The notes: a model not told the origin generated them from the letters alone. Numbered from the stretch's first letter, positions 7,852 through 19,501 are shown. The stretch: 20,000 nucleotides of DNA from an uncultured virus (IMG/VR IMGVR_UViG_3300011813_000035) (IMGVR_UViG_3300011813_000035:113195-133194); one strand, 5' to 3'. Translations and numbers: made by a program.

Positions 7852-8184
7852 GTGGAACAAAGTAGGAATAGGGTTAAAAAATTAAACGATACTTCAGACT
7901 ACAAGTATGCGGCAAGACAATATAAAGATTATTCAATAGCGAAAGAAATTGAGTCGGATCTTAAAGTAATGGTATATGCGATTTTGGGGAGTAAAAAAGA
8001 TATAGACGTTCAAAGCTCAAAGACCCCAAGTTGTTTTGGAGTCGTAGGGAAGGAACCTAAATATTATTGGTTTGCCTATATCAAGCCAGGTGGTTATATG
8101 TTCTTAGCAGAGTCTGAAATCGAATTATATTGTAACATCATTGCTAAAATTGTTGGGAATAGACTGTATATACCATTCAGTTAA
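7852..8184 (+). CDS. Hypothetical protein
   Basis: RBS AAGGGAG, GTG start, 110 aa. Confidence 0.65.
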   Translation: MEQSRNRVKKLNDTSDYKYAARQYKDYSIAKEIESDLKVMVYAILGSKKDIDVQSSKTPSCFGVVGKEPKYYWFAYIKPGGYMFLAESEIELYCNIIAKIVGNRLYIPFS

Positions 8185-8231
8185 TAACGTTAAAACGGAA
8201 GTTTTATAGCTCAACAGGTGACAAGGTAAAC

Positions 8232-8252
8232 AAAAAAGGCGACATGATCGCC
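8232..8252 (-). terminator. Rho-independent terminator of the RT operon
   Basis: Minus strand GGCGA-TCATG-TCGCC-TTTTTT, 3 nt after the RT stop codon. Confidence 0.8.
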
Positions 8253-8255
8253 CAA

Positions 8256-9206
8256 TTATTTTTCTTTAGAAAACTTATATAAATTCTGATATTGACCAGG
8301 ATTGACTTGACGAATGGCAGTTAGTAATCCTTGAAGACGCTTCTTAGATTTTTCTGGATTTAATTTTAGCTCAGTTAATTCATGTATTACCTTAAGGCGC
8401 ATTGAGTTTCGAGGTATGGGATTTCCATTCCTGTCAAGAACAACTCCAGTAATAAGTTTTGGATAATTCTTGGTATACGTTTTAACTTTTGACTTGGAAA
8501 TCATATAATGATATTTTGTTACTATTTTATTAACCATAGTTTTAAATCGATAATTAATTTTATTAGCACAAGAAAATGTTACATCGTCGGCATATATTGT
8601 CATAACTATATTATTTTTAGAAGATAGATTATATAATTCATCAAACATTGGTCTATTTACTAAGTATGATAAAATTGGGCTGGCTGGAGAACCCGTTGCT
8701 AAATGGTTTGAATTTTTTAATTTCTTTTGCATATAAAAACTTTCAACTTTATCAACATTTTTTAAGGGACACAAAGTTAAATCAACTGTTGTTAAGTTGG
8801 TAAGAATATTTGCAATATCAGGGGAGGTTTTGAGTTCATTAATAAAAAATAAATAGACATATTCTCGAGGTATACATGGGAAGAAAGCTGTTAAATCAAT
8901 TTTATATACATACTTATTCCCTTTATGGATTAATGCGTTATCATAATATGATTTACCTTTAACACCTGAAAAAACATAGTTTGGAACTTTTATTTGACTT
9001 AATTGAGATTTGAGCGATCTTTGAATTTGTTTGACACTGTAAGATGGCGCTTCAACCAATCTTGGTTTAGCTTTCGTATCAATGTAGATATTGTATTCCA
9101 TTGCAATATCTTTTTGATTAAAACTATTCTTATTTGTAATCTTTAATAAGTACCTTAAAGATTTTTTTGACTTTAAGTTATATATTTTACAGTTTGTATA
9201 ATTCAT
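8256..9206 (-). CDS. Retron-type reverse transcriptase
   Basis: KIDLTAFF, LATGSPASPILS (variant of PQG..TSP), catalytic YADD, retron region X NALIH (NAxxH) and region Y ITG (VTG-like). 316 aa with no maturase or endonuclease domain. RBS AAGGAG at 9214-9219. Confidence 0.9.
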   Translation of the reverse strand: MNYTNCKIYNLKSKKSLRYLLKITNKNSFNQKDIAMEYNIYIDTKAKPRLVEAPSYSVKQIQRSLKSQLSQIKVPNYVFSGVKGKSYYDNALIHKGNKYVYKIDLTAFFPCIPREYVYLFFINELKTSPDIANILTNLTTVDLTLCPLKNVDKVESFYMQKKLKNSNHLATGSPASPILSYLVNRPMFDELYNLSSKNNIVMTIYADDVTFSCANKINYRFKTMVNKIVTKYHYMISKSKVKTYTKNYPKLITGVVLDRNGNPIPRNSMRLKVIHELTELKLNPEKSKKRLQGLLTAIRQVNPGQYQNLYKFSKEK

Positions 9207-9236
9207 ACAAACACTCCTTGCTTTTTAGTGCTAGTA

Positions 9237-9461
9237 TCAATCCTTAACAATCTCATATAATAACTGGATGAAACGAGATAGGGTTTTAGGATCAACGTGT
9301 GGTGCAATCAGTGATACGATAAGTAAAGCAACAATGAAGAGTAGTAGTGCTACTATTAACTGACCCAAATTAATATTGTAATTATTATTAATGGTACAAT
9401 TGGTCAAGTTGGTCTGATTGTTGCTAAAAATTTGTGGATTTTTATCATCCGGTTTTTTCAT
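9237..9461 (-). CDS. 74-aa Asn-rich, single-transmembrane protein; candidate retron effector/toxin
   Basis: RBS AAGGAGG (9468-9474); NNQTNLTNCTINNNYNIN then hydrophobic LIVALLLFIVALLIVSLIA and an amphipathic C-terminal helix; lies between the ncRNA and the RT. Confidence 0.75.
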   Translation of the reverse strand: MKKPDDKNPQIFSNNQTNLTNCTINNNYNINLGQLIVALLLFIVALLIVSLIAPHVDPKTLSRFIQLLYEIVKD

Positions 9462-9468
9462 AATTCAC

Positions 9469-9523
9469 CTCCTTGTTATTATTGGCTCCATATGGAGTCT
9501 CCCAATCCATTAATAACAAAGAG
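9469..9523 (-). promoter_or_regulatory. SD-sequestering hairpin in front of the 74-aa ORF
   Basis: RNA CUCUUUGUUAUUA (9523-9511) pairs with UAAUAACAAGGAG (9481-9469): 13 bp with one G-U. Inner palindrome CTCCATATGGAG at 9486-9497. Confidence 0.75.
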
Positions 9524-9810
9524 ATACATAACCTTGCATCACTATACTAGCACAAAACTTACTCCCTATTTTTTTCTATAGGAGATTAAAATTTCAAAAC
9601 CAACCGATTACCTTTTCATTGATGACATAGTCCTACGAACAAACACTTCGCACCGCACCTTTTCCGATACCCGGGGGAGGTACAATCATCTCGTCTCCAC
9701 TATTGTCGTCGAAAGGGATTGGGGTTTTAAAAATACTCAGAAGGCTCTGAGTAGCATTCATGTTGGTAGCATGAACCATATTGGGAGAAATCTGGTTATT
9801 ATTCACTGAC
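9498..9810 (-). ncRNA. Putative retron ncRNA (msr-msd)
   Basis: 9-bp inverted repeat at 9780-9788/9498-9506 (a2/a1-like); GG at 9777-9776 just inside; two short hairpins (9757-9775, 9734-9753); long branched stem 9592-9732; further hairpin 9562-9584; promoter immediately upstream. Confidence 0.7.
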
Positions 9811-9816
9811 ATGGGC

Positions 9817-9845
9817 ATTATATCATATTTTGGAAAAAACATCAA
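9817..9845 (-). promoter_or_regulatory. SigmaA promoter TTGATG-N17-TATAAT with extended -10 TG
   Basis: -35 at 9840-9845, -10 at 9817-9822 preceded by TGA; transcription start predicted near 9810. Confidence 0.85.
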
Positions 9846-9872
9846 TTAAAATTGGGATTTTAAAGGAGGGTT

Positions 9873-10406
9873 ATGACAGATAAAGAAAGAATATTAATGA
9901 CAATAATTACTAGAATAATTCCAGGCTTGATGTATTGTGGTAATTCATATGAAAAGAGAGAAGAATATGTTAAATCATATATGCTTGATACGGCTGGACT
10001 CGAAAGTGGAGATCTAGTATTTGCGAATACATCAATCTATCCGAATGATTTTATAGTAGGGTTTATTCACGAAATTAAGCCTGATTGTATCGTCATAAGA
10101 GAAATCGGGAGCGATAGATTGTGTAATTACTATAATGAAATGTTTACAAAAATCAACAAAGACAAACTTGGATATGAGATATTGGAAGGAGTTCAATATA
10201 AAACATATCATAAGGTATTAAAAGCTTTTAGCGATTATGCAAGTTATGCAACAAAGTTTAAATATATTTCATTTGACGAAAACACGTGCACTGTCCAGTC
10301 AAGAATAATGTTTTCAGATGAAATCAAGTATGAAATAAAATTTAAATATGATAGTAAAACCACTATTAAGAGTATTGGAAAACTAATTAAAGAAAAGGAG
10401 GTTTAA
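9873..10406 (+). CDS. Hypothetical phage protein
   Basis: RBS AAAGGAGG, 177 aa. Confidence 0.75.
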   Translation: MTDKERILMTIITRIIPGLMYCGNSYEKREEYVKSYMLDTAGLESGDLVFANTSIYPNDFIVGFIHEIKPDCIVIREIGSDRLCNYYNEMFTKINKDKLGYEILEGVQYKTYHKVLKAFSDYASYATKFKYISFDENTCTVQSRIMFSDEIKYEIKFKYDSKTTIKSIGKLIKEKEV

Positions 10407-11033
10407 ATGGGGTATAAGGATATTTTGGGCAGAGAACTCCACGACGGAGATATTTGTGTCGGAAAAGGAACGGGTAGAGATGTATGTGGAATGGACGTTG
10501 GTATATGGTCTGGCAAATCTATTGCATTTAAGGGCGGAAATAAACGTTCAATGGGAGATGTATTTCTTGTAGTAAATCCAACAGAAGAAGAACTGACAAT
10601 TAAAAGTGATATTGAAAAATCTTTAATTGAAAGCGAGAACAAAAGACTAGAAAGAGATTCTGTAAAAACAATACCACTAAGTAAACTTGAAGTTGGTGGA
10701 ATATATGAATGTAACAATAATTACTTGTACCTGTATTTAGGAAAACGCAAAGTCACATTTAAAAATCTACAGTATAAAAATTCTGATCCTAAAGTTCAGG
10801 AGGGACATTGCTTTGTTTTTGCTTGCGGATCTGATGACGAAAAAATAAAGAAAGATATCGTTGAAATTGGAACGTATCATGGAAATCATAGAATAGAAGT
10901 ATTGAAGGGAAATAAGAAACTCACAAAACTAATTCGCAAGATTGATTTAGAGTTCCCCATGGTTAATGAGGTGCATAGCGAAGGATACCTCAGATATAGT
11001 CCAAATTATCATTATGAATTAACAGTAGAATAG
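10407..11033 (+). CDS. Hypothetical phage protein
   Basis: RBS AAGGAGG; abuts the previous stop; N-terminal KDILGRELHDGD pattern is common in phage proteins. Confidence 0.75.
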   Translation: MGYKDILGRELHDGDICVGKGTGRDVCGMDVGIWSGKSIAFKGGNKRSMGDVFLVVNPTEEELTIKSDIEKSLIESENKRLERDSVKTIPLSKLEVGGIYECNNNYLYLYLGKRKVTFKNLQYKNSDPKVQEGHCFVFACGSDDEKIKKDIVEIGTYHGNHRIEVLKGNKKLTKLIRKIDLEFPMVNEVHSEGYLRYSPNYHYELTVE

Positions 11034-11900: not shown

Positions 11901-12485
11901 ATGCAAATAAGCAACGTAAATGTTTATGGATTAGAAAATGCCATTAGGGTTAGCAAGTTTCCTATGGCAGTAAACGTTGAAGACTGTACATGTGAAACAA
12001 TCAAAACAACATCAAAATTAGGGTCGTGCAAATCAGGCAGTGGTCATGATAATTATATAAAAGGGATCATCGTACAGTTTGATATGAGATTCAGTAACAA
12101 GATGTCCGTGGAACTTGAAAGATACCACTTCATTGATTTCATATCTAGTCAGTCAACTATGCATCGTATTACAAAATTCATGCTTGAAGATCAATGTAAT
12201 GAATTTGTAGATCAGAGAGTTATTGATATTGTCCAGGAAATGATTGATGTCTATAACGGATTAGAAGATAAGGGCACTGAATTTGCCAAGGATCTATATT
12301 TAAGAATTTTATATAATATCCCTTCAGGATTTGAATTAACCGCTGGATTCACAACAAATTACCAGCAATTGAAAACAATCTATTGGCAGCGTAGAAATCA
12401 TCGGCTCCCTGAGTGGCGAGCGTTCTGTAAATGGGTAGAAACTTTGCCAAAGTTTGGAGAATTAGTATTGGGAGGTGAAAAATAA
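11901..12485 (+). CDS. ThyX-like (flavin-dependent thymidylate synthase fold) phage protein
   Basis: GHDNY, ELERYHF...SQSTMHR, NYQQLKTIYWQRRNHRLPEW pattern; located in the nucleotide-metabolism block. Confidence 0.55.
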   Translation: MQISNVNVYGLENAIRVSKFPMAVNVEDCTCETIKTTSKLGSCKSGSGHDNYIKGIIVQFDMRFSNKMSVELERYHFIDFISSQSTMHRITKFMLEDQCNEFVDQRVIDIVQEMIDVYNGLEDKGTEFAKDLYLRILYNIPSGFELTAGFTTNYQQLKTIYWQRRNHRLPEWRAFCKWVETLPKFGELVLGGEK

Positions 12486-14204: not shown

Positions 14205-16397
14205 TTGGTGAAAGTGATAAAAAGAGATCACACAGTAGTTGATTTCGACAAAAACAAGATTAAAAAAGCTATTTTGAAAGCATTTATTGATGTTGATGAT
14301 GAAGAAAGTCCTTACGCGAAAGAAAAGGCAAGAGATATTGCTAATTACATAGAATCTTTAAACAAAAAGATGTCGGTAGAGGAAATTCAGAATATTATTG
14401 AAGAAAAGCTAATGTCTAGCAATCGTAAAGATGTGGCAAGAGCATATATACAATATAGACTCAAAAGAAGTCTCATCAGAGAAAGCAATACAACTGATAA
14501 GAGCATTTTGGAACTGCTTGAAGGAGATAGTGAATACTGGAATACAGAGAATTCTAATAAGAACGCCAAGTTAAATACAACAATCAGGGATTATACGGCA
14601 GGAGTGGTAAGCAAAGACTTGACTGAAAGAATTTTGCTTCCCAAGGATATAGTCAAAGCTCACAACGCCGGTATTATTCACTTCCATGATGAAGATTACT
14701 TTATGCAACTGATGCATAATTGCTGTTTAGTAAATCTTGAGGATATGCTACAGAATGGAACTGTGATTTCTGAGACATTGGTCGAGAAACCCCACAGTTT
14801 TTCAACAGCGTGTAATATTGCAACTCAGATAATTGCACAGGTAGCAAGTTCTCAATATGGCGGACAAAGCATTTCTTTGGCTCATTTAGCTCCATTTGTA
14901 GATATCAGTAGAAAGTCTATTAAAAATGACGTGATTAAAGAGCGAACAATTACAGGAGACGATTTAAATGAAACAAAGATTGATACAACGGTAAAATTGA
15001 GACTTGCTAAAGAGATAAGAAAAGGTATTCAGACTATCCAGTATCAAATAGTGACACTTATGACGACGAATGGTCAAGCTCCGTTTTTAACTTTGTTCAT
15101 GTATTTAGGAGAAACAAAGAGCGAACAGGAAAAGGCCGACCTTGCATTATTAATAGAAGAAACTCTTATTCAGAGTCATCAGGGTGTAAAAAATGAGGGT
15201 GGATCGTGGATCACACCTGCTTTTCCAAAGGTCATATATGTACTGGAAGAAGATAATGTTCGTAAAGACAGTAAATATTGGTATCTTACAGAATTAGCAG
15301 CTAAGTGTTCTGTGAAACGACTTACTCCTGATTACATATCAGAAAAGAAAATGAAAGAGTTAAAAGATGGAAACTGCTATCCTGTAATGGGCTGTAGATC
15401 CGCATTGACTGTTTGGAAAGACGAGAATGGAAATCCTAAGTTCTACGGCAGATTTAATCAAGGAGTAGTAACTCTTAATCTTGTAGATTTAGCGTTATCG
15501 TCAAAAGGTGATTTTGTTAAGTTCTGGGATTTGTTTGAAGAGAGAACTCAATTGTGTCATAGAGCTTTACAATGTAGGCACGAGAGACTTGAGGGAACCC
15601 CGTCTGATGTCGCTCCTATATTATGGCAACATGGGGCGTTAGCAAGACTTGATAAAGGAGAAGTTATAGATAACTTACTTCATGGTGGGTACTCTACATT
15701 ATCACTTGGATATGCAGGATTATATGAATGTGTAAAATATATGACTGGTCATTCACATAGCGACGATGGTATTGGCGAATCATTTGGACTAACTGTAATG
15801 AAGGCTTTAAATGATAAGTGTAATCAATGGAAAGAAGTAGAAAACATTGATTATAGCTTATATGGCACGCCACTGGAGTCAACAACATATAAGTTTTCAA
15901 AGTGTTTGCAGGATAGATTTGGAGTAATTAAAGGGATTACAGATAGGAATTATATTACAAATTCGTACCATATTCCAGTATTTGAAGAAATTGATGCATT
16001 TGATAAACTAGAAAAAGAAGCTAAGTTCCAGAGATGGAGTCCTGGTGGAGCAATATCTTACATAGAATCCCCCAATCTTGATAATAATATCCCAGCAGTA
16101 ATAGAAGTGATTAAATTCATCTATGAAAACAATATCTATGCAGAGATAAACACAAAAAGCGATCACTGTCAGATATGTGGACATGATAAAGAAATTAAAT
16201 TAATTGATAATGATGGCAAACTGATATGGGAATGTCCTAATTGTGGAAATAGAGATGTGAGAACCATGGATATAACCAGAAGGACTTGCGGTTATAAAGG
16301 CACTGCGAGGAATGGTTGGAATCAGGGTAGACTGGGAGACATTCATGACAGAGTTATGCACTTAGATGATATAGAATTAGAAGGAAGTGATTCTTGA
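14205..16397 (+). CDS. nrdD: Anaerobic (class III) ribonucleoside-triphosphate reductase
   Basis: ATP cone (VIKRD...FDKNKI), HNCCL, MGCRS, CQIC/CPNC Zn site, glycyl-radical RRTCGY. Confidence 0.97.
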   Translation: MVKVIKRDHTVVDFDKNKIKKAILKAFIDVDDEESPYAKEKARDIANYIESLNKKMSVEEIQNIIEEKLMSSNRKDVARAYIQYRLKRSLIRESNTTDKSILELLEGDSEYWNTENSNKNAKLNTTIRDYTAGVVSKDLTERILLPKDIVKAHNAGIIHFHDEDYFMQLMHNCCLVNLEDMLQNGTVISETLVEKPHSFSTACNIATQIIAQVASSQYGGQSISLAHLAPFVDISRKSIKNDVIKERTITGDDLNETKIDTTVKLRLAKEIRKGIQTIQYQIVTLMTTNGQAPFLTLFMYLGETKSEQEKADLALLIEETLIQSHQGVKNEGGSWITPAFPKVIYVLEEDNVRKDSKYWYLTELAAKCSVKRLTPDYISEKKMKELKDGNCYPVMGCRSALTVWKDENGNPKFYGRFNQGVVTLNLVDLALSSKGDFVKFWDLFEERTQLCHRALQCRHERLEGTPSDVAPILWQHGALARLDKGEVIDNLLHGGYSTLSLGYAGLYECVKYMTGHSHSDDGIGESFGLTVMKALNDKCNQWKEVENIDYSLYGTPLESTTYKFSKCLQDRFGVIKGITDRNYITNSYHIPVFEEIDAFDKLEKEAKFQRWSPGGAISYIESPNLDNNIPAVIEVIKFIYENNIYAEINTKSDHCQICGHDKEIKLIDNDGKLIWECPNCGNRDVRTMDITRRTCGYKGTARNGWNQGRLGDIHDRVMHLDDIELEGSDS

Positions 16398-18208: not shown

Positions 18209-19501
18209 ATGAAGGATATGTTGAAAACATTGCTTAAAAATGGTAATATAGGTATTAGCGACATCGTTGGAGTTCTTTTTGACTATAAGGAGAATTCTAC
18301 GATGAATAAAACAAAGATACCAAAACCAACATATCGACCAGAAAAAGATGTCTGGGTGTTAAATGTGCCTAAACATCTAAGTAGAGATGGAAAAAGACAT
18401 CAAGTTAGAGGAAAGACAAGTGAAGATGCAATTACGGAATATAAAAAGTATATTGTGCTACCAGAAGATGGTATTACAGTTGAAAGTTATATGCTATATG
18501 TATTGCTAACTTACTTCTATAAAAATGTCGATAATACAACGTATGACAGATACGAGGGCACCTATTTAAAACATATTGTTGGAAGTATTCTTGGTCAAAA
18601 ACAGATATGTGATGTTACAGGAGATTACCTAACAGAATGGATGAAAACATATACTAGTGGTAATTATCAAAAACAGACACCTGCCCATTTAAAGGTTCTG
18701 ATTAACGAAACATTTTTAAGAGCTGAACAAAACAAAATAATTACTAAGAATGTGTCGGAGTATATGACTATTTCATATAAGCAGTGTAAAAGTAAAAGAA
18801 GTGACAAGGAACTTTTTACATTAGACGAACTCCAAAGAATCGAAACGATAATTATTGACTCTTGGGCTGGAAAAGTAAACGGACATATACACCTTTATCA
18901 TTATTCACCAATCTTTATGATTATGGCGTTAAGTGGAATTAGAATAGGCGAAATGATTGCTCTTAAAAAAGAGGATATTAATCGTGCTGAAAGATATATA
19001 TCCATTAACAGACAATGTGTTGAAGAATATGAAAGAGACGACAAAGGCCACAAATTAAAAAAGATTAAGAGGATTACAGATCCTAAGACCAATACGAGTG
19101 TAAGAATAGTGCCATTATCTGAAAGCGTATTGTACTGGATTGACGAACTTGAAAGAAGGCAAACAGAATTAAAAATCATCTCTGAATTTATATTTACAAA
19201 TAGAAAAGGGAAACACCCTCTTAAGTCAAACATTTACGATATGTGGGCTAAAGTATTAAAAGATGCCAACGTCGATTATCGGCCAAGTCATAAACTGAGA
19301 AAGACTTTTATCACGCTTTCGATTGATGGCGGAGTGGAAATGGCAGATGTTGCAAAAATGGTAGGTCACAAAAATATTACAACGACAATTAACACGTATT
19401 ATAAACCAGTGATTGATAAGGAAAAGCATTTAAAAGATGCTAAAATAATTGATGGTATTTTTGGCAATTCCAATATGAATAAGAGGCATATTTATGGGTA
19501 A
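18209..19501 (+). CDS. int: Tyrosine recombinase/integrase (likely start 18302)
   Basis: GIRIGE (R), PKT (K), HKLRKT (HxxR), GH, YY (catalytic Y); AAGGAG at 18287-18292 precedes in-frame ATG 18302. Confidence 0.92.
   Translation: MKDMLKTLLKNGNIGISDIVGVLFDYKENSTMNKTKIPKPTYRPEKDVWVLNVPKHLSRDGKRHQVRGKTSEDAITEYKKYIVLPEDGITVESYMLYVLLTYFYKNVDNTTYDRYEGTYLKHIVGSILGQKQICDVTGDYLTEWMKTYTSGNYQKQTPAHLKVLINETFLRAEQNKIITKNVSEYMTISYKQCKSKRSDKELFTLDELQRIETIIIDSWAGKVNGHIHLYHYSPIFMIMALSGIRIGEMIALKKEDINRAERYISINRQCVEEYERDDKGHKLKKIKRITDPKTNTSVRIVPLSESVLYWIDELERRQTELKIISEFIFTNRKGKHPLKSNIYDMWAKVLKDANVDYRPSHKLRKTFITLSIDGGVEMADVAKMVGHKNITTTINTYYKPVIDKEKHLKDAKIIDGIFGNSNMNKRHIYG

Follow-up and report, generated by a model that had tools for sequence, protein, structure and literature searches.

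The 20,000-nucleotide (nt) stretch of DNA analysed here, which as a whole we call the window, belongs to an uncultured virus (IMG/VR IMGVR_UViG_3300011813_000035, positions 113195-133194), and its minus strand carries a compact operon with the make-up of a retron. An open reading frame (ORF) of 74 amino acids (aa), whose product we refer to as the small protein (SP), is followed by a 316-aa reverse transcriptase (RT), and approximately 350 nt upstream of the SP ORF (9812-9462, minus strand) are structured and gene-free. Within this upstream part, the Shine-Dalgarno (SD) sequence of the SP is buried in a long, conserved hairpin, which is probably a lock on translation of the SP. The RT matches the PADLOC family RT_VI at 2.6e-69 (231.6 bits, 2-276 of 279 model positions; the next family reaches 3e-40) and Pfam RVT_1 at 6.2e-13, and in 31 aligned homologues the catalytic residues Y205, D207 and D208 do not vary. 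Judged by its sequence, the locus is a Type VI retron: it shares with this type the RT clade, the intact YxDD motif, a non-coding RNA (ncRNA) with a1/a2, msr and variable msd parts, a predicted sequestered ribosome-binding site (RBS) of the SP, and the inverted repeats IR1 and IR2, but it lacks the Cro/C1-type helix-turn-helix (HTH) gene that most Type VI retrons carry upstream of the RT or overlapping it. An Rfam scan of 8000-11000 with E values up to 1 gave two chance-level matches only and no retron family. The features are collected in Table 1.

The RT has 376 homologues at E <=1e-20 in the protein collection (among 2680 candidates), and its relatives in metagenomes occupy 281 stretches, from which 80 loci were kept. 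After dropping duplicates and loci short of upstream DNA, these gave an alignment of 30 distinct ncRNAs (A2), and a further alignment (A3) holds 47 distinct full RNAs, from the promoter to the RT start. Among species-representative genomes there are two RT loci, both in Clostridia metagenome-assembled genomes, and the RT was found in 4 of 399 scored genomes of its class, its own included; a scan of viral contigs with the RT returned no relative. The survey extends Type VI retrons to gut and fermentation Clostridia and to carriage by prophages. Of the sequencing runs X1, X2, X3 and X5, compared as contigs, X5 alone was informative, X2 and X3 having yielded short pieces and X1 nothing; a contig of 6998 nt from X5 is the closest relative seen, without cover of 9238-9369 and 9576-9722. 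Among runs recorded as RNA, none was found to contain this DNA. Two Type VI retrons of proteobacterial phages were also examined, from Shewanella phage vB_SspS_MuM16-1 (MZ568827.1; L091) and Pasteurella phage Pmp14 (OR544131.1; L092).

Table 1. Features of the retron and its surroundings, retron features in order of transcription (window coordinates; SL, stem-loop; CDS, coding sequence; MFE, minimum free energy structure)
Feature	Position	Strand	Basis or remark
Promoter of retron transcript, TTGATG, 17 nt, TGaTATAAT	9817..9845	-	best sigma-70-like site in 8100-9950; 10/12 matches, TG motif
Leader helix arm GUCAGUGA, predicted transcript 5' end	9803..9810	-	alternative partners: CDS box, IR1
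5' copy of AAUAAUAAC, proposed competitor; bulge between leader and a1	9795..9803	-	exact copy
a1 region CCAGAUUUCUCCCAAU, core UCUCCCAAU at 9788-9780	9780..9794	-	CAGA invariant in 47/47; pairs with box 1 in 391-nt MFE
Invariant UGG between a1 and first msr hairpin	9776..9778	-	columns T45 G46 G47 of A3
msr-like hairpins SL1 (9775-9770 / 9762-9757) and SL2 (9753-9746 / 9741-9734)	9734..9775	-	RNAalifold
Variable msd-like region, presumed cDNA template	9570..9733 (approximate bounds)	-	length-variable, poorly alignable between conserved flanks
Box 1 AUAGGGAGU, inner a2 core, family-conserved a1 partner	9561..9569	-	duplex energies; positional match to a2 of the Shewanella and Pasteurella phage retrons
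IR1 GUGCUAGUAU, pairs with IR2 or leader	9544..9553	-	I2
Anti-SD arm, 5' arm of riboregulator hairpin	9511..9526	-	folding, shuffles, covariation
Box 2 AUUGGGAGA, hairpin internal loop; box 1 copy, complementary to a1	9498..9506	-	I13
Inner hairpin CUCC-AUAU-GGAG	9486..9497	-	stem covaries, 2/4 pairs changed on both sides
SD arm, GGAGG at 9472-9468	9466..9481	-	SD accessibility by partition-function folding
SP ORF, 74 aa, presumed toxin	9237..9461	-	MKKxD N-terminus, ~20 hydrophobic residues, C-terminal helix
CDS box UCACUGAU inside SP ORF, leader partner	9307..9314	-	covariation in A3
IR2 AUACUAGCAC, overlaps SP stop codon	9228..9237	-	I2, covariation
Retron reverse transcriptase, 316 aa, YADD	8256..9206	-	PADLOC RT_VI, Pfam RVT_1
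Terminator-like hairpin and U-run after RT	8237..8253	-	terminator-like site scan
phrog_6721 protein	11901-12485	+	prophage-like block
NrdD	14205-16397	+	prophage-like block
Integrase	18209-19501	+	prophage-like block

In the minus-strand RNA, CUCUUUGUUAUU (9523-9512) pairs with AAUAACAAGGAG (9480-9469), and together with its flanks the helix comprises 16 contiguous pairs, three of them G-U, which bury the GGAGG of the SP ORF just upstream of the RT. The 101-nt and the 391-nt folds both contain this helix, in the MFE as well as in the centroid, and the inverted-repeat search of the window lists it as I1. The 101-nt fold has a z score of -3.3 and was equalled in stability by 1 of 200 shuffles; when the upstream 117 nt were shuffled against the SD arm, 16 pairs were reached in none of 5000 cases, and at least 12 in 25. 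All 47 aligned relatives keep the helix, with 14 pairs and 98.8% of cells paired in A3; seven of these pairs are invariant, four vary on one side and are always wobble-compatible, and two change on both sides in eight sequences through a matched one-base insertion or register shift (UUCCUUUG with CAAAGGAGG). For the whole submitted structure, none of 500 shuffles matched the observed pairing or covariation score, and controls slid along the alignment were 35-55% paired. Thus, the hairpin that buries the SD is real, and an earlier note on this DNA, which had placed the SD in a long stem with its 5' arm at 9511-9523, was right on this point.

Partition-function folding predicts that the RBS of the SP is sequestered in this structure. 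In 12 of 12 representative full RNAs, chosen from the 47, the probability of the SP SD being unpaired is 0.001-0.027 (0.002 in the window), and it rises to 0.15-0.44 (0.44 in the window) when the RNA starts 3' of the anti-SD arm; the corresponding value for the SD of the RT is 0.01-0.60. The relative in run X5 differs from the window at 9480 and 9479, both uncompensated, so that the lock loses its top two pairs there, and its inner loop reads GCAA instead of AUAU on a stem that is kept.

Three further complementarities are specific to the window. The upper anti-SD arm (9507-9519) is complementary to an AAU-rich part of the SP ORF (9382-9394; I3), the 5' AAUAAUAAC region (9790-9802) to the 3' part of the SP (9257-9269; I5), and box 2 with its spacer (9501-9511) to the start of the msd region (9713-9723; I8). 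These three were not found in relatives and lie in an AT-rich context. A match between the msd-terminal hairpin loop and the SD arm (AACAAG in L026) was considered and discarded, because these loops differ among relatives and the SD arm is A-rich and of low complexity.

Upstream of the hairpin, the RNA is laid out like a retron ncRNA. Three of the six pairs of SL1 have changed on both sides (RNAalifold), SL2 appears as I17 in the inverted-repeat list, and the variable msd-like block corresponds to an internal stem-loop that is likewise variable in published ncRNAs of Type VI. Going by canonical retrons, we take a G of the invariant UGG to be a candidate for the branching G; the bulge between leader and a1 was set aside as its site, because the window has no G there.

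Retron RTs start copying beside a1, and RNase H removes the template; the canonical start of the complementary DNA (cDNA) is established for retrons such as Ec86. Where copying would start at this locus depends on the partner of a1, and there are two candidates, box 1 and the loop segment that we call box 2. The earlier note had read box 2 as an a1-like repeat. This segment is indeed part of the loop, separated from the 5' arm by 4 nt, and it complements 9780-9788 perfectly, but the label has to be reversed, since a1 is 9788-9780 and 9506-9498 is a2-like. Box 1 and box 2 have a common word of 8-10 nt in 46 of 47 sequences; the word is lineage-specific, with at least five variants, UGGGGAGU, UAGGGAGA, UUGGAAGUC and (U)GGGAAGUC among them, and only 5-6 nt of it are complementary to a1. 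In every lineage box 2 is complementary to a1 over these 5-6 nt, and the two change together (CUCCC/GGGAG, ACUUC/GAAGU). The co-evolution of the loop box with the a2 core is new here.

In the relatives, the preferred partner of a1 is box 1. The a1/box 1 duplex has -13 to -18 kcal/mol in most relatives and beats its shuffles (<=10/200 matching) in 20 of 28 distinct sets, whereas the a1/box 2 duplex does so (<=10/200) in a single one of the 28, which is the window; the more stable partner is box 1 in 20 sets and box 2 in five, with a tie in three. In the window itself, a1 and box 2 form a perfect 9-bp duplex of -14.3 kcal/mol (2/200 shuffles) as against -12.7 kcal/mol (4/200) for a1 and box 1. 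The 9-bp loop match of the earlier note exists, but it is marginal against chance, and in X5 it is interrupted: with a1 unchanged, U9504 is replaced by A, which breaks the duplex and makes box 2 read like box 1. Furthermore, box 1 is directly followed by IR1, such that a1/box 1 and leader/IR1 add up to a long bulged a1/a2 stem. Since the conserved a1 partner lies approximately 40 nt upstream of the anti-SD arm, a canonical start, with the UGG as candidate branch site, would be upstream of 9569; the anti-SD arm would then be 3' of the template, and most likely it lies outside the part that is copied. A cDNA that starts near 9507 and covers 9511-9523, as the earlier note predicted, finds no support in the preference of a1 for box 1, nor in Retron-Vpa2, where the multicopy single-stranded DNA (msDNA) is located on the msr-msd arm (bioRxiv 10.1101/2025.10.22.683967).

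Complementarity between a possible cDNA and the hairpin was profiled by a sliding 16-mer scan, which replaced an RNAduplex comparison of the whole cDNA with the whole riboregulator that had given sprawling, uninformative duplexes. Within the ncRNA, the best conserved match to the 5' half of the riboregulator is the complement of box 1 (mean -15.7 versus -8.1 kcal/mol overall; standard deviation of column means 2.2). Dips of second rank were seen at A3 columns 112-122 and 162-165. In the GACUUC subfamily (e.g., L036; A3 columns 150-170 and 408-446), the msd region begins with UUCUCCGGCAGAAGU, which looks like the anti-SD arm and box 2 without the part in the middle, such that a full-length cDNA would at its 3' end be complementary in part to the anti-SD arm; the window has no likeness of this type.

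The earlier note had also pointed to a second AAUAAUAAC near the transcript 5' end that could compete for the anti-SD arm. The window does contain two exact copies and no more (9803-9795, 9483-9475), but two copies per 20 kb occur in 38 of 200 shuffles. As a conserved competitor the 5' copy does not hold, since it is absent from the wider family, which has GAGCAGU or AAAUAG instead, and is changed at 9801 in X5, where both copies are altered and agree at 6 of 9 positions.

What is conserved at the 5' end is the leader arm. Its pairing with the CDS box inside the SP ORF comprises eight pairs, with 100% of cells paired and four pairs changed on both sides (A3), while 98.5% of cells are paired between leader and IR1, mostly through G-U tolerance. 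IR1 in turn pairs with IR2 over 11 pairs (94.2% paired); four of these changed on both sides, and the G to A with C to U seen in the window is one such change. A transcript 5' end with two conserved alternative partners is thus a second new observation. A fourth helix, between CDS box and IR2, was rejected, with 78.7% of cells paired and one column never paired. In most relatives, among them L010 (up to 8 U), L021, L026 and L033, IR2 is followed by a U-tract (A3 columns 736-745; the window has UAAAAAG), and the IR1-IR2 helix could thus terminate the hybrid RNA before the RT gene.

An ORF in the place of the SP, of 61-74 aa, is found in 63 of the 64 loci examined, the remaining one (L055) having failed the start-codon rule. 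The 31 distinct SPs align, with an MKKxDK start, a polar stretch, approximately 20 hydrophobic residues and a C-terminal helix; the SP of the window has a 19-residue Kyte-Doolittle peak of 3.1 and no Pfam, PHROG or PADLOC family. Wherever an SP was called (63 loci), 30-38 nt separate its stop from the start of the RT, which leaves no room for an HTH gene between the two. A tblastn search over the loci with the HTH proteins of L091 and L092 gave one match at E <1e-3, in L024, and when the downstream ORFs of 62 loci were listed and inspected by eye alone (no Pfam scan), no further HTH gene turned up. L024 (2744-2920) is the sole relative of this kind: approximately 280 nt downstream of its RT lies an XRE-type HTH ORF of 118 aa that aligns with the HTH of the Pasteurella phage Type VI retron at 39% identity over 59 residues. 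The third observation that is new here is a large clade of Clostridia whose operon has SP and RT and no HTH gene. In such a lineage, the role that the HTH protein plays in Vpa2 (restraining the RT) or in Sen3 (antitoxin) must be absent or be borne by the RNA.

The retron is prophage-borne and sits in a Clostridia genome, a bacterial assembly of 4.9 Mb in 44 contigs. Its surroundings in the window are prophage-like and rich in nucleotide-metabolism genes, all on the plus strand; besides those in Table 1, this block holds NrdG, a dUTPase, a guanylate kinase, a polynucleotide kinase, a DNA methyltransferase and an endolysin-like protein, and the retron is the sole minus-strand insert among them. 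A megablast search of the whole window against 50,697 phage records found no match. The genome encodes RNase HI and HII, so that steps requiring RNase H could take place. Divergent from the retron promoter lie two ORFs (177 and 208 aa; 9873-11033, plus strand) that belong to no Pfam, PADLOC or PHROG family. A 70-aa ORF over the ncRNA (9633-9845, minus strand) overlaps the conserved RNA helices and is most likely not a gene.

The sequence predicts only one promoter upstream of ncRNA, SP and RT; its TATAAT block is aligned across relatives, and it places the transcript start at about 9812-9810. Between promoter and RT stop there are two terminator-like sites, one inside the RT ORF and the other the msr SL2 hairpin. 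The latter (9753-9734), with UUUUUAAAAC, scores like an intrinsic terminator within the ncRNA, a U-run is present there in relatives too, and the site could be an attenuator.

What the hairpin does may be read from Retron-Vpa2 of Vibrio parahaemolyticus, where msr-msd and SP ORF form one hybrid RNA with RBS and start codon in stem-loops, and where deletion of the non-coding part is toxic (bioRxiv 10.1101/2025.10.22.683967). The SP of Vpa2 is translationally repressed and needs msDNA made by the RT, full-length msDNA in trans being sufficient, while the HTH protein restrains msDNA; a catalytically dead RT abolishes SP translation in a background lacking the HTH (dHTH), and a complex of RT, HTH and hybrid RNA forms in which msDNA is not detectable (bioRxiv 10.1101/2025.10.22.683967). 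According to the same preprint, the mapped msDNA covers a stem-loop of the msr-msd arm and not the riboregulator arm, and the proposed contact is made by 7-nt direct repeats, one in the msd loop at the msDNA 5' end and the other in the riboregulator loop (bioRxiv 10.1101/2025.10.22.683967).

With moderate confidence, we regard the stem at our locus as the translational lock, or riboregulator, of a Type VI hybrid RNA that would work much like that of Vpa2. One promoter would give a transcript in the order a1, two msr hairpins, variable msd, box 1, IR1, anti-SD/SD hairpin, SP, IR2 and RT. In the resting RNA, folding and conservation predict that the SD of the SP is held in the 16-bp helix and that the toxin is not made. 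Single-stranded DNA (ssDNA) made by the RT and accumulating during phage infection would, by homology to Vpa2, open the lock, and translation of the SP would then stop the infected cell. The likely contact would be box 2, the unpaired internal-loop word that co-evolves with box 1; the two boxes were equated with the 7-nt repeats of Vpa2 by their position and with the help of the two phage retrons. The partner of box 2 in this contact may be a1, the RT or the cDNA. The earlier note had proposed RT activity as an ON switch for the toxin, and in outline this agrees with Vpa2; the similar derepression in Type VI retrons to which it pointed has likewise been reported (bioRxiv 10.1101/2025.10.22.683967). 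The idea that the RT switches the toxin on is thus already published for Type VI and not new, and the route by which the note had it happen, erasure of the anti-SD arm through cDNA, fares poorly.

A number of points weigh against a lock of the Vpa2 kind. Box 1 and box 2 of the window have no more than five contiguous bases in common, GGGAG. In L091 and L092, the loop word is repeated not in a2 but in the msd-terminal hairpin loop (GGGCGAG in L091, GAGGA in L092), a position that is without a conserved word in the Clostridia clade. Because box 1 overlaps the a2 core, which a canonical start leaves uncopied, a contact in which cDNA of the first repeat lies on the second transfers poorly from Vpa2. 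An 8-nt loop contact alone cannot open a 16-bp helix. With no HTH present, such a lock gives no account of what would prevent basal RT activity from arming the toxin, and the logic of Vpa2 is not universal, since Sen3, also of Type VI, is controlled post-translationally (bioRxiv 10.64898/2026.04.27.721009).

Among the other explanations, a switch of RNA conformation or protein binding that dispenses with cDNA is unlikely. It would act through the long-range alternative helices, or through the RT sitting on the a2-like box 2, and reverse transcription would serve another end such as sensing. The leader does keep both the CDS box, by Watson-Crick pairs, and IR1, by wobble-tolerant ones, IR1 also pairs with IR2, and the identity between box 1 and box 2 runs 2-4 nt past the complementarity to a1, as expected of a shared site for a protein or ligand; the Vpa2 complex that forms without detectable msDNA would fit, and in Sen3 two alternative RNA conformations reposition the RBS of the SP (bioRxiv 10.64898/2026.04.27.721009). 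Against this, no long-range alternative helix overlaps the anti-SD or SD arm, so no direct coupling is evident, and the dead RT of Vpa2 abolishes SP translation in the dHTH background.

It is quite unlikely that a1 primes on box 2, with the RT copying the anti-SD arm first, from about 9507, and an RNA:DNA hybrid or RNase H then freeing the SD in cis. The perfect and slightly stabler a1/box 2 duplex of the window speaks for such an erasure, as do the match of box 2 to a1 in all lineages and its change with a1 between subfamilies, the rise in predicted SD accessibility from 0.002 to 0.44 once the anti-SD arm is removed, and the two RNases H of the genome. However, a1/box 2 is the stabler duplex in only 5 of 28 sets and stands out from shuffles in one, as against 20 for box 1, and X5 breaks it while keeping a1. 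The outer leader/IR1 helix flanks box 1, as expected of a full a1/a2 stem, with a similar arrangement in L091, and in Vpa2 the msDNA maps to the msr-msd arm and suffices in trans. Very unlikely, finally, is a hairpin that only damps SP translation or stabilises the mRNA, with low constitutive SP and activation that is post-translational or otherwise achieved: Sen3 does make SP and ssDNA constitutively despite a predicted sequestered RBS, but its viability needs an HTH antitoxin, for which no ORF fits between SP and RT here and to which phage HTH proteins find a counterpart in one locus only (L024, downstream of the RT), and a 16-bp helix with an SD unpaired at 0.002 is a strong block rather than a trim.

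Leader and IR1 each have two mutually exclusive conserved partners. On a further reading, improbable as it stands, the hybrid RNA might alone do the work of the missing HTH, toggling between a priming-competent retron fold and a closed mRNA fold; box 2 would mimic a2 inside the lock, and a1, or the RT bound to it, would re-register from box 1 to box 2 upon a trigger and copy the anti-SD arm. If this were true, re-registration would make erasure in cis a second, self-arming mode of priming.

Returning to the lock that we favour, its wider meaning is that Type VI retrons invert the usual retron logic, in that the DNA product arms a toxin rather than restraining it. Neither of the two Type VI preprints settles the way in which DNA opens the lock. 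The clade described here is a stripped-down natural Type VI system of two genes and no HTH, in which a1, a2 core and loop box change together across 47 RNAs, and the co-changing boxes provide a handle, by compensatory mutations, on annealing in trans versus erasure of the template in cis versus refolding of the RNA.

Among known systems, the fold-back-inhibited type I toxin mRNAs of the hok type also encode a small membrane toxin, have an SD occluded by mRNA structure and use long-range 5'-3' pairing; hok mRNAs and synthetic toehold or loop-initiated riboregulators are activated when an RNA segment is removed or displaced, or through a nucleic acid in trans. At our locus the activator would instead be DNA, which a dedicated RT copies from the transcript itself, and there is no antisense RNA gene; these systems have no sequence relationship to the window.

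The two phage retrons are closer. L091 and L092 share the carriage by a phage, the UAGGG motif at the start of a2, and an MFE before the SP start that consists of an outer stem, an unpaired loop word and an inner hairpin. In L091, the outer stem pairs UCCU with the SD AGGA, and the loop word AUUGGGCGAGAC is close to AUUGGGAGAC of the window; in L092, the outer stem stops immediately 5' of the SD, and the SD is part of a second small stem-loop. Complementarity of the a1/a2 type was traced by eye across box 1 and IR1 in L091, and a1 could not be placed in L092. Both differ from the window in the order SP-HTH-RT, with a 103-aa HTH overlapping the RT start, and in an RT identity of only 32-35%. 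Their repeat lies in the loop of a hairpin just upstream of a2, in agreement with the placement described for Vpa2 by Zhang et al. (bioRxiv 10.1101/2025.10.22.683967); in the Clostridia clade, the repeat has moved onto the a2 core.

For Sen3, it was reported that the RBS of the SP is predicted to be sequestered and that a conserved IR1-IR2 pairing flanks the SP, that ssDNA and SP are constitutive and controlled post-translationally by an HTH antitoxin needed for viability, and that approximately 78% of Type VI entries have an HTH (bioRxiv 10.64898/2026.04.27.721009). As far as that account goes, Sen3 and the cl2075 lineage have in common with our clade the Type VI RT, the sequestered RBS, IR1-IR2, alternative RNA conformations and an SP coding region under RNA structural selection, and they differ by the HTH-antitoxin control, an unrelated SP sequence and proteobacterial hosts. 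The SP toxins of both preprints have a hydrophobic core and a C-terminal helix, as here (bioRxiv 10.1101/2025.10.22.683967; 10.64898/2026.04.27.721009).

The nearest counterpart is Vpa2. On what the passages on it convey, it shares with the window the RT of the Type VI clade, the msr-msd and small hydrophobic ORF on one transcript (predicted in the window), the RBS in a hairpin, the short direct repeat, of which one copy falls within the loop of the riboregulator, and inverted repeats that tie the RNA after the ORF to the ncRNA. It differs in having SP-HTH-RT in a Vibrio instead of SP-RT without HTH in a Clostridia prophage, and in the upstream repeat copy, which is in the msd loop there and overlaps the a2 core here; the helix of leader and CDS box is not named in these passages. 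While the function of Vpa2 was measured by experiment, our locus is known from its sequence alone. Taken together, the locus presents a variant of a known mechanism, and for the mechanism as stated it mostly confirms what is in print.

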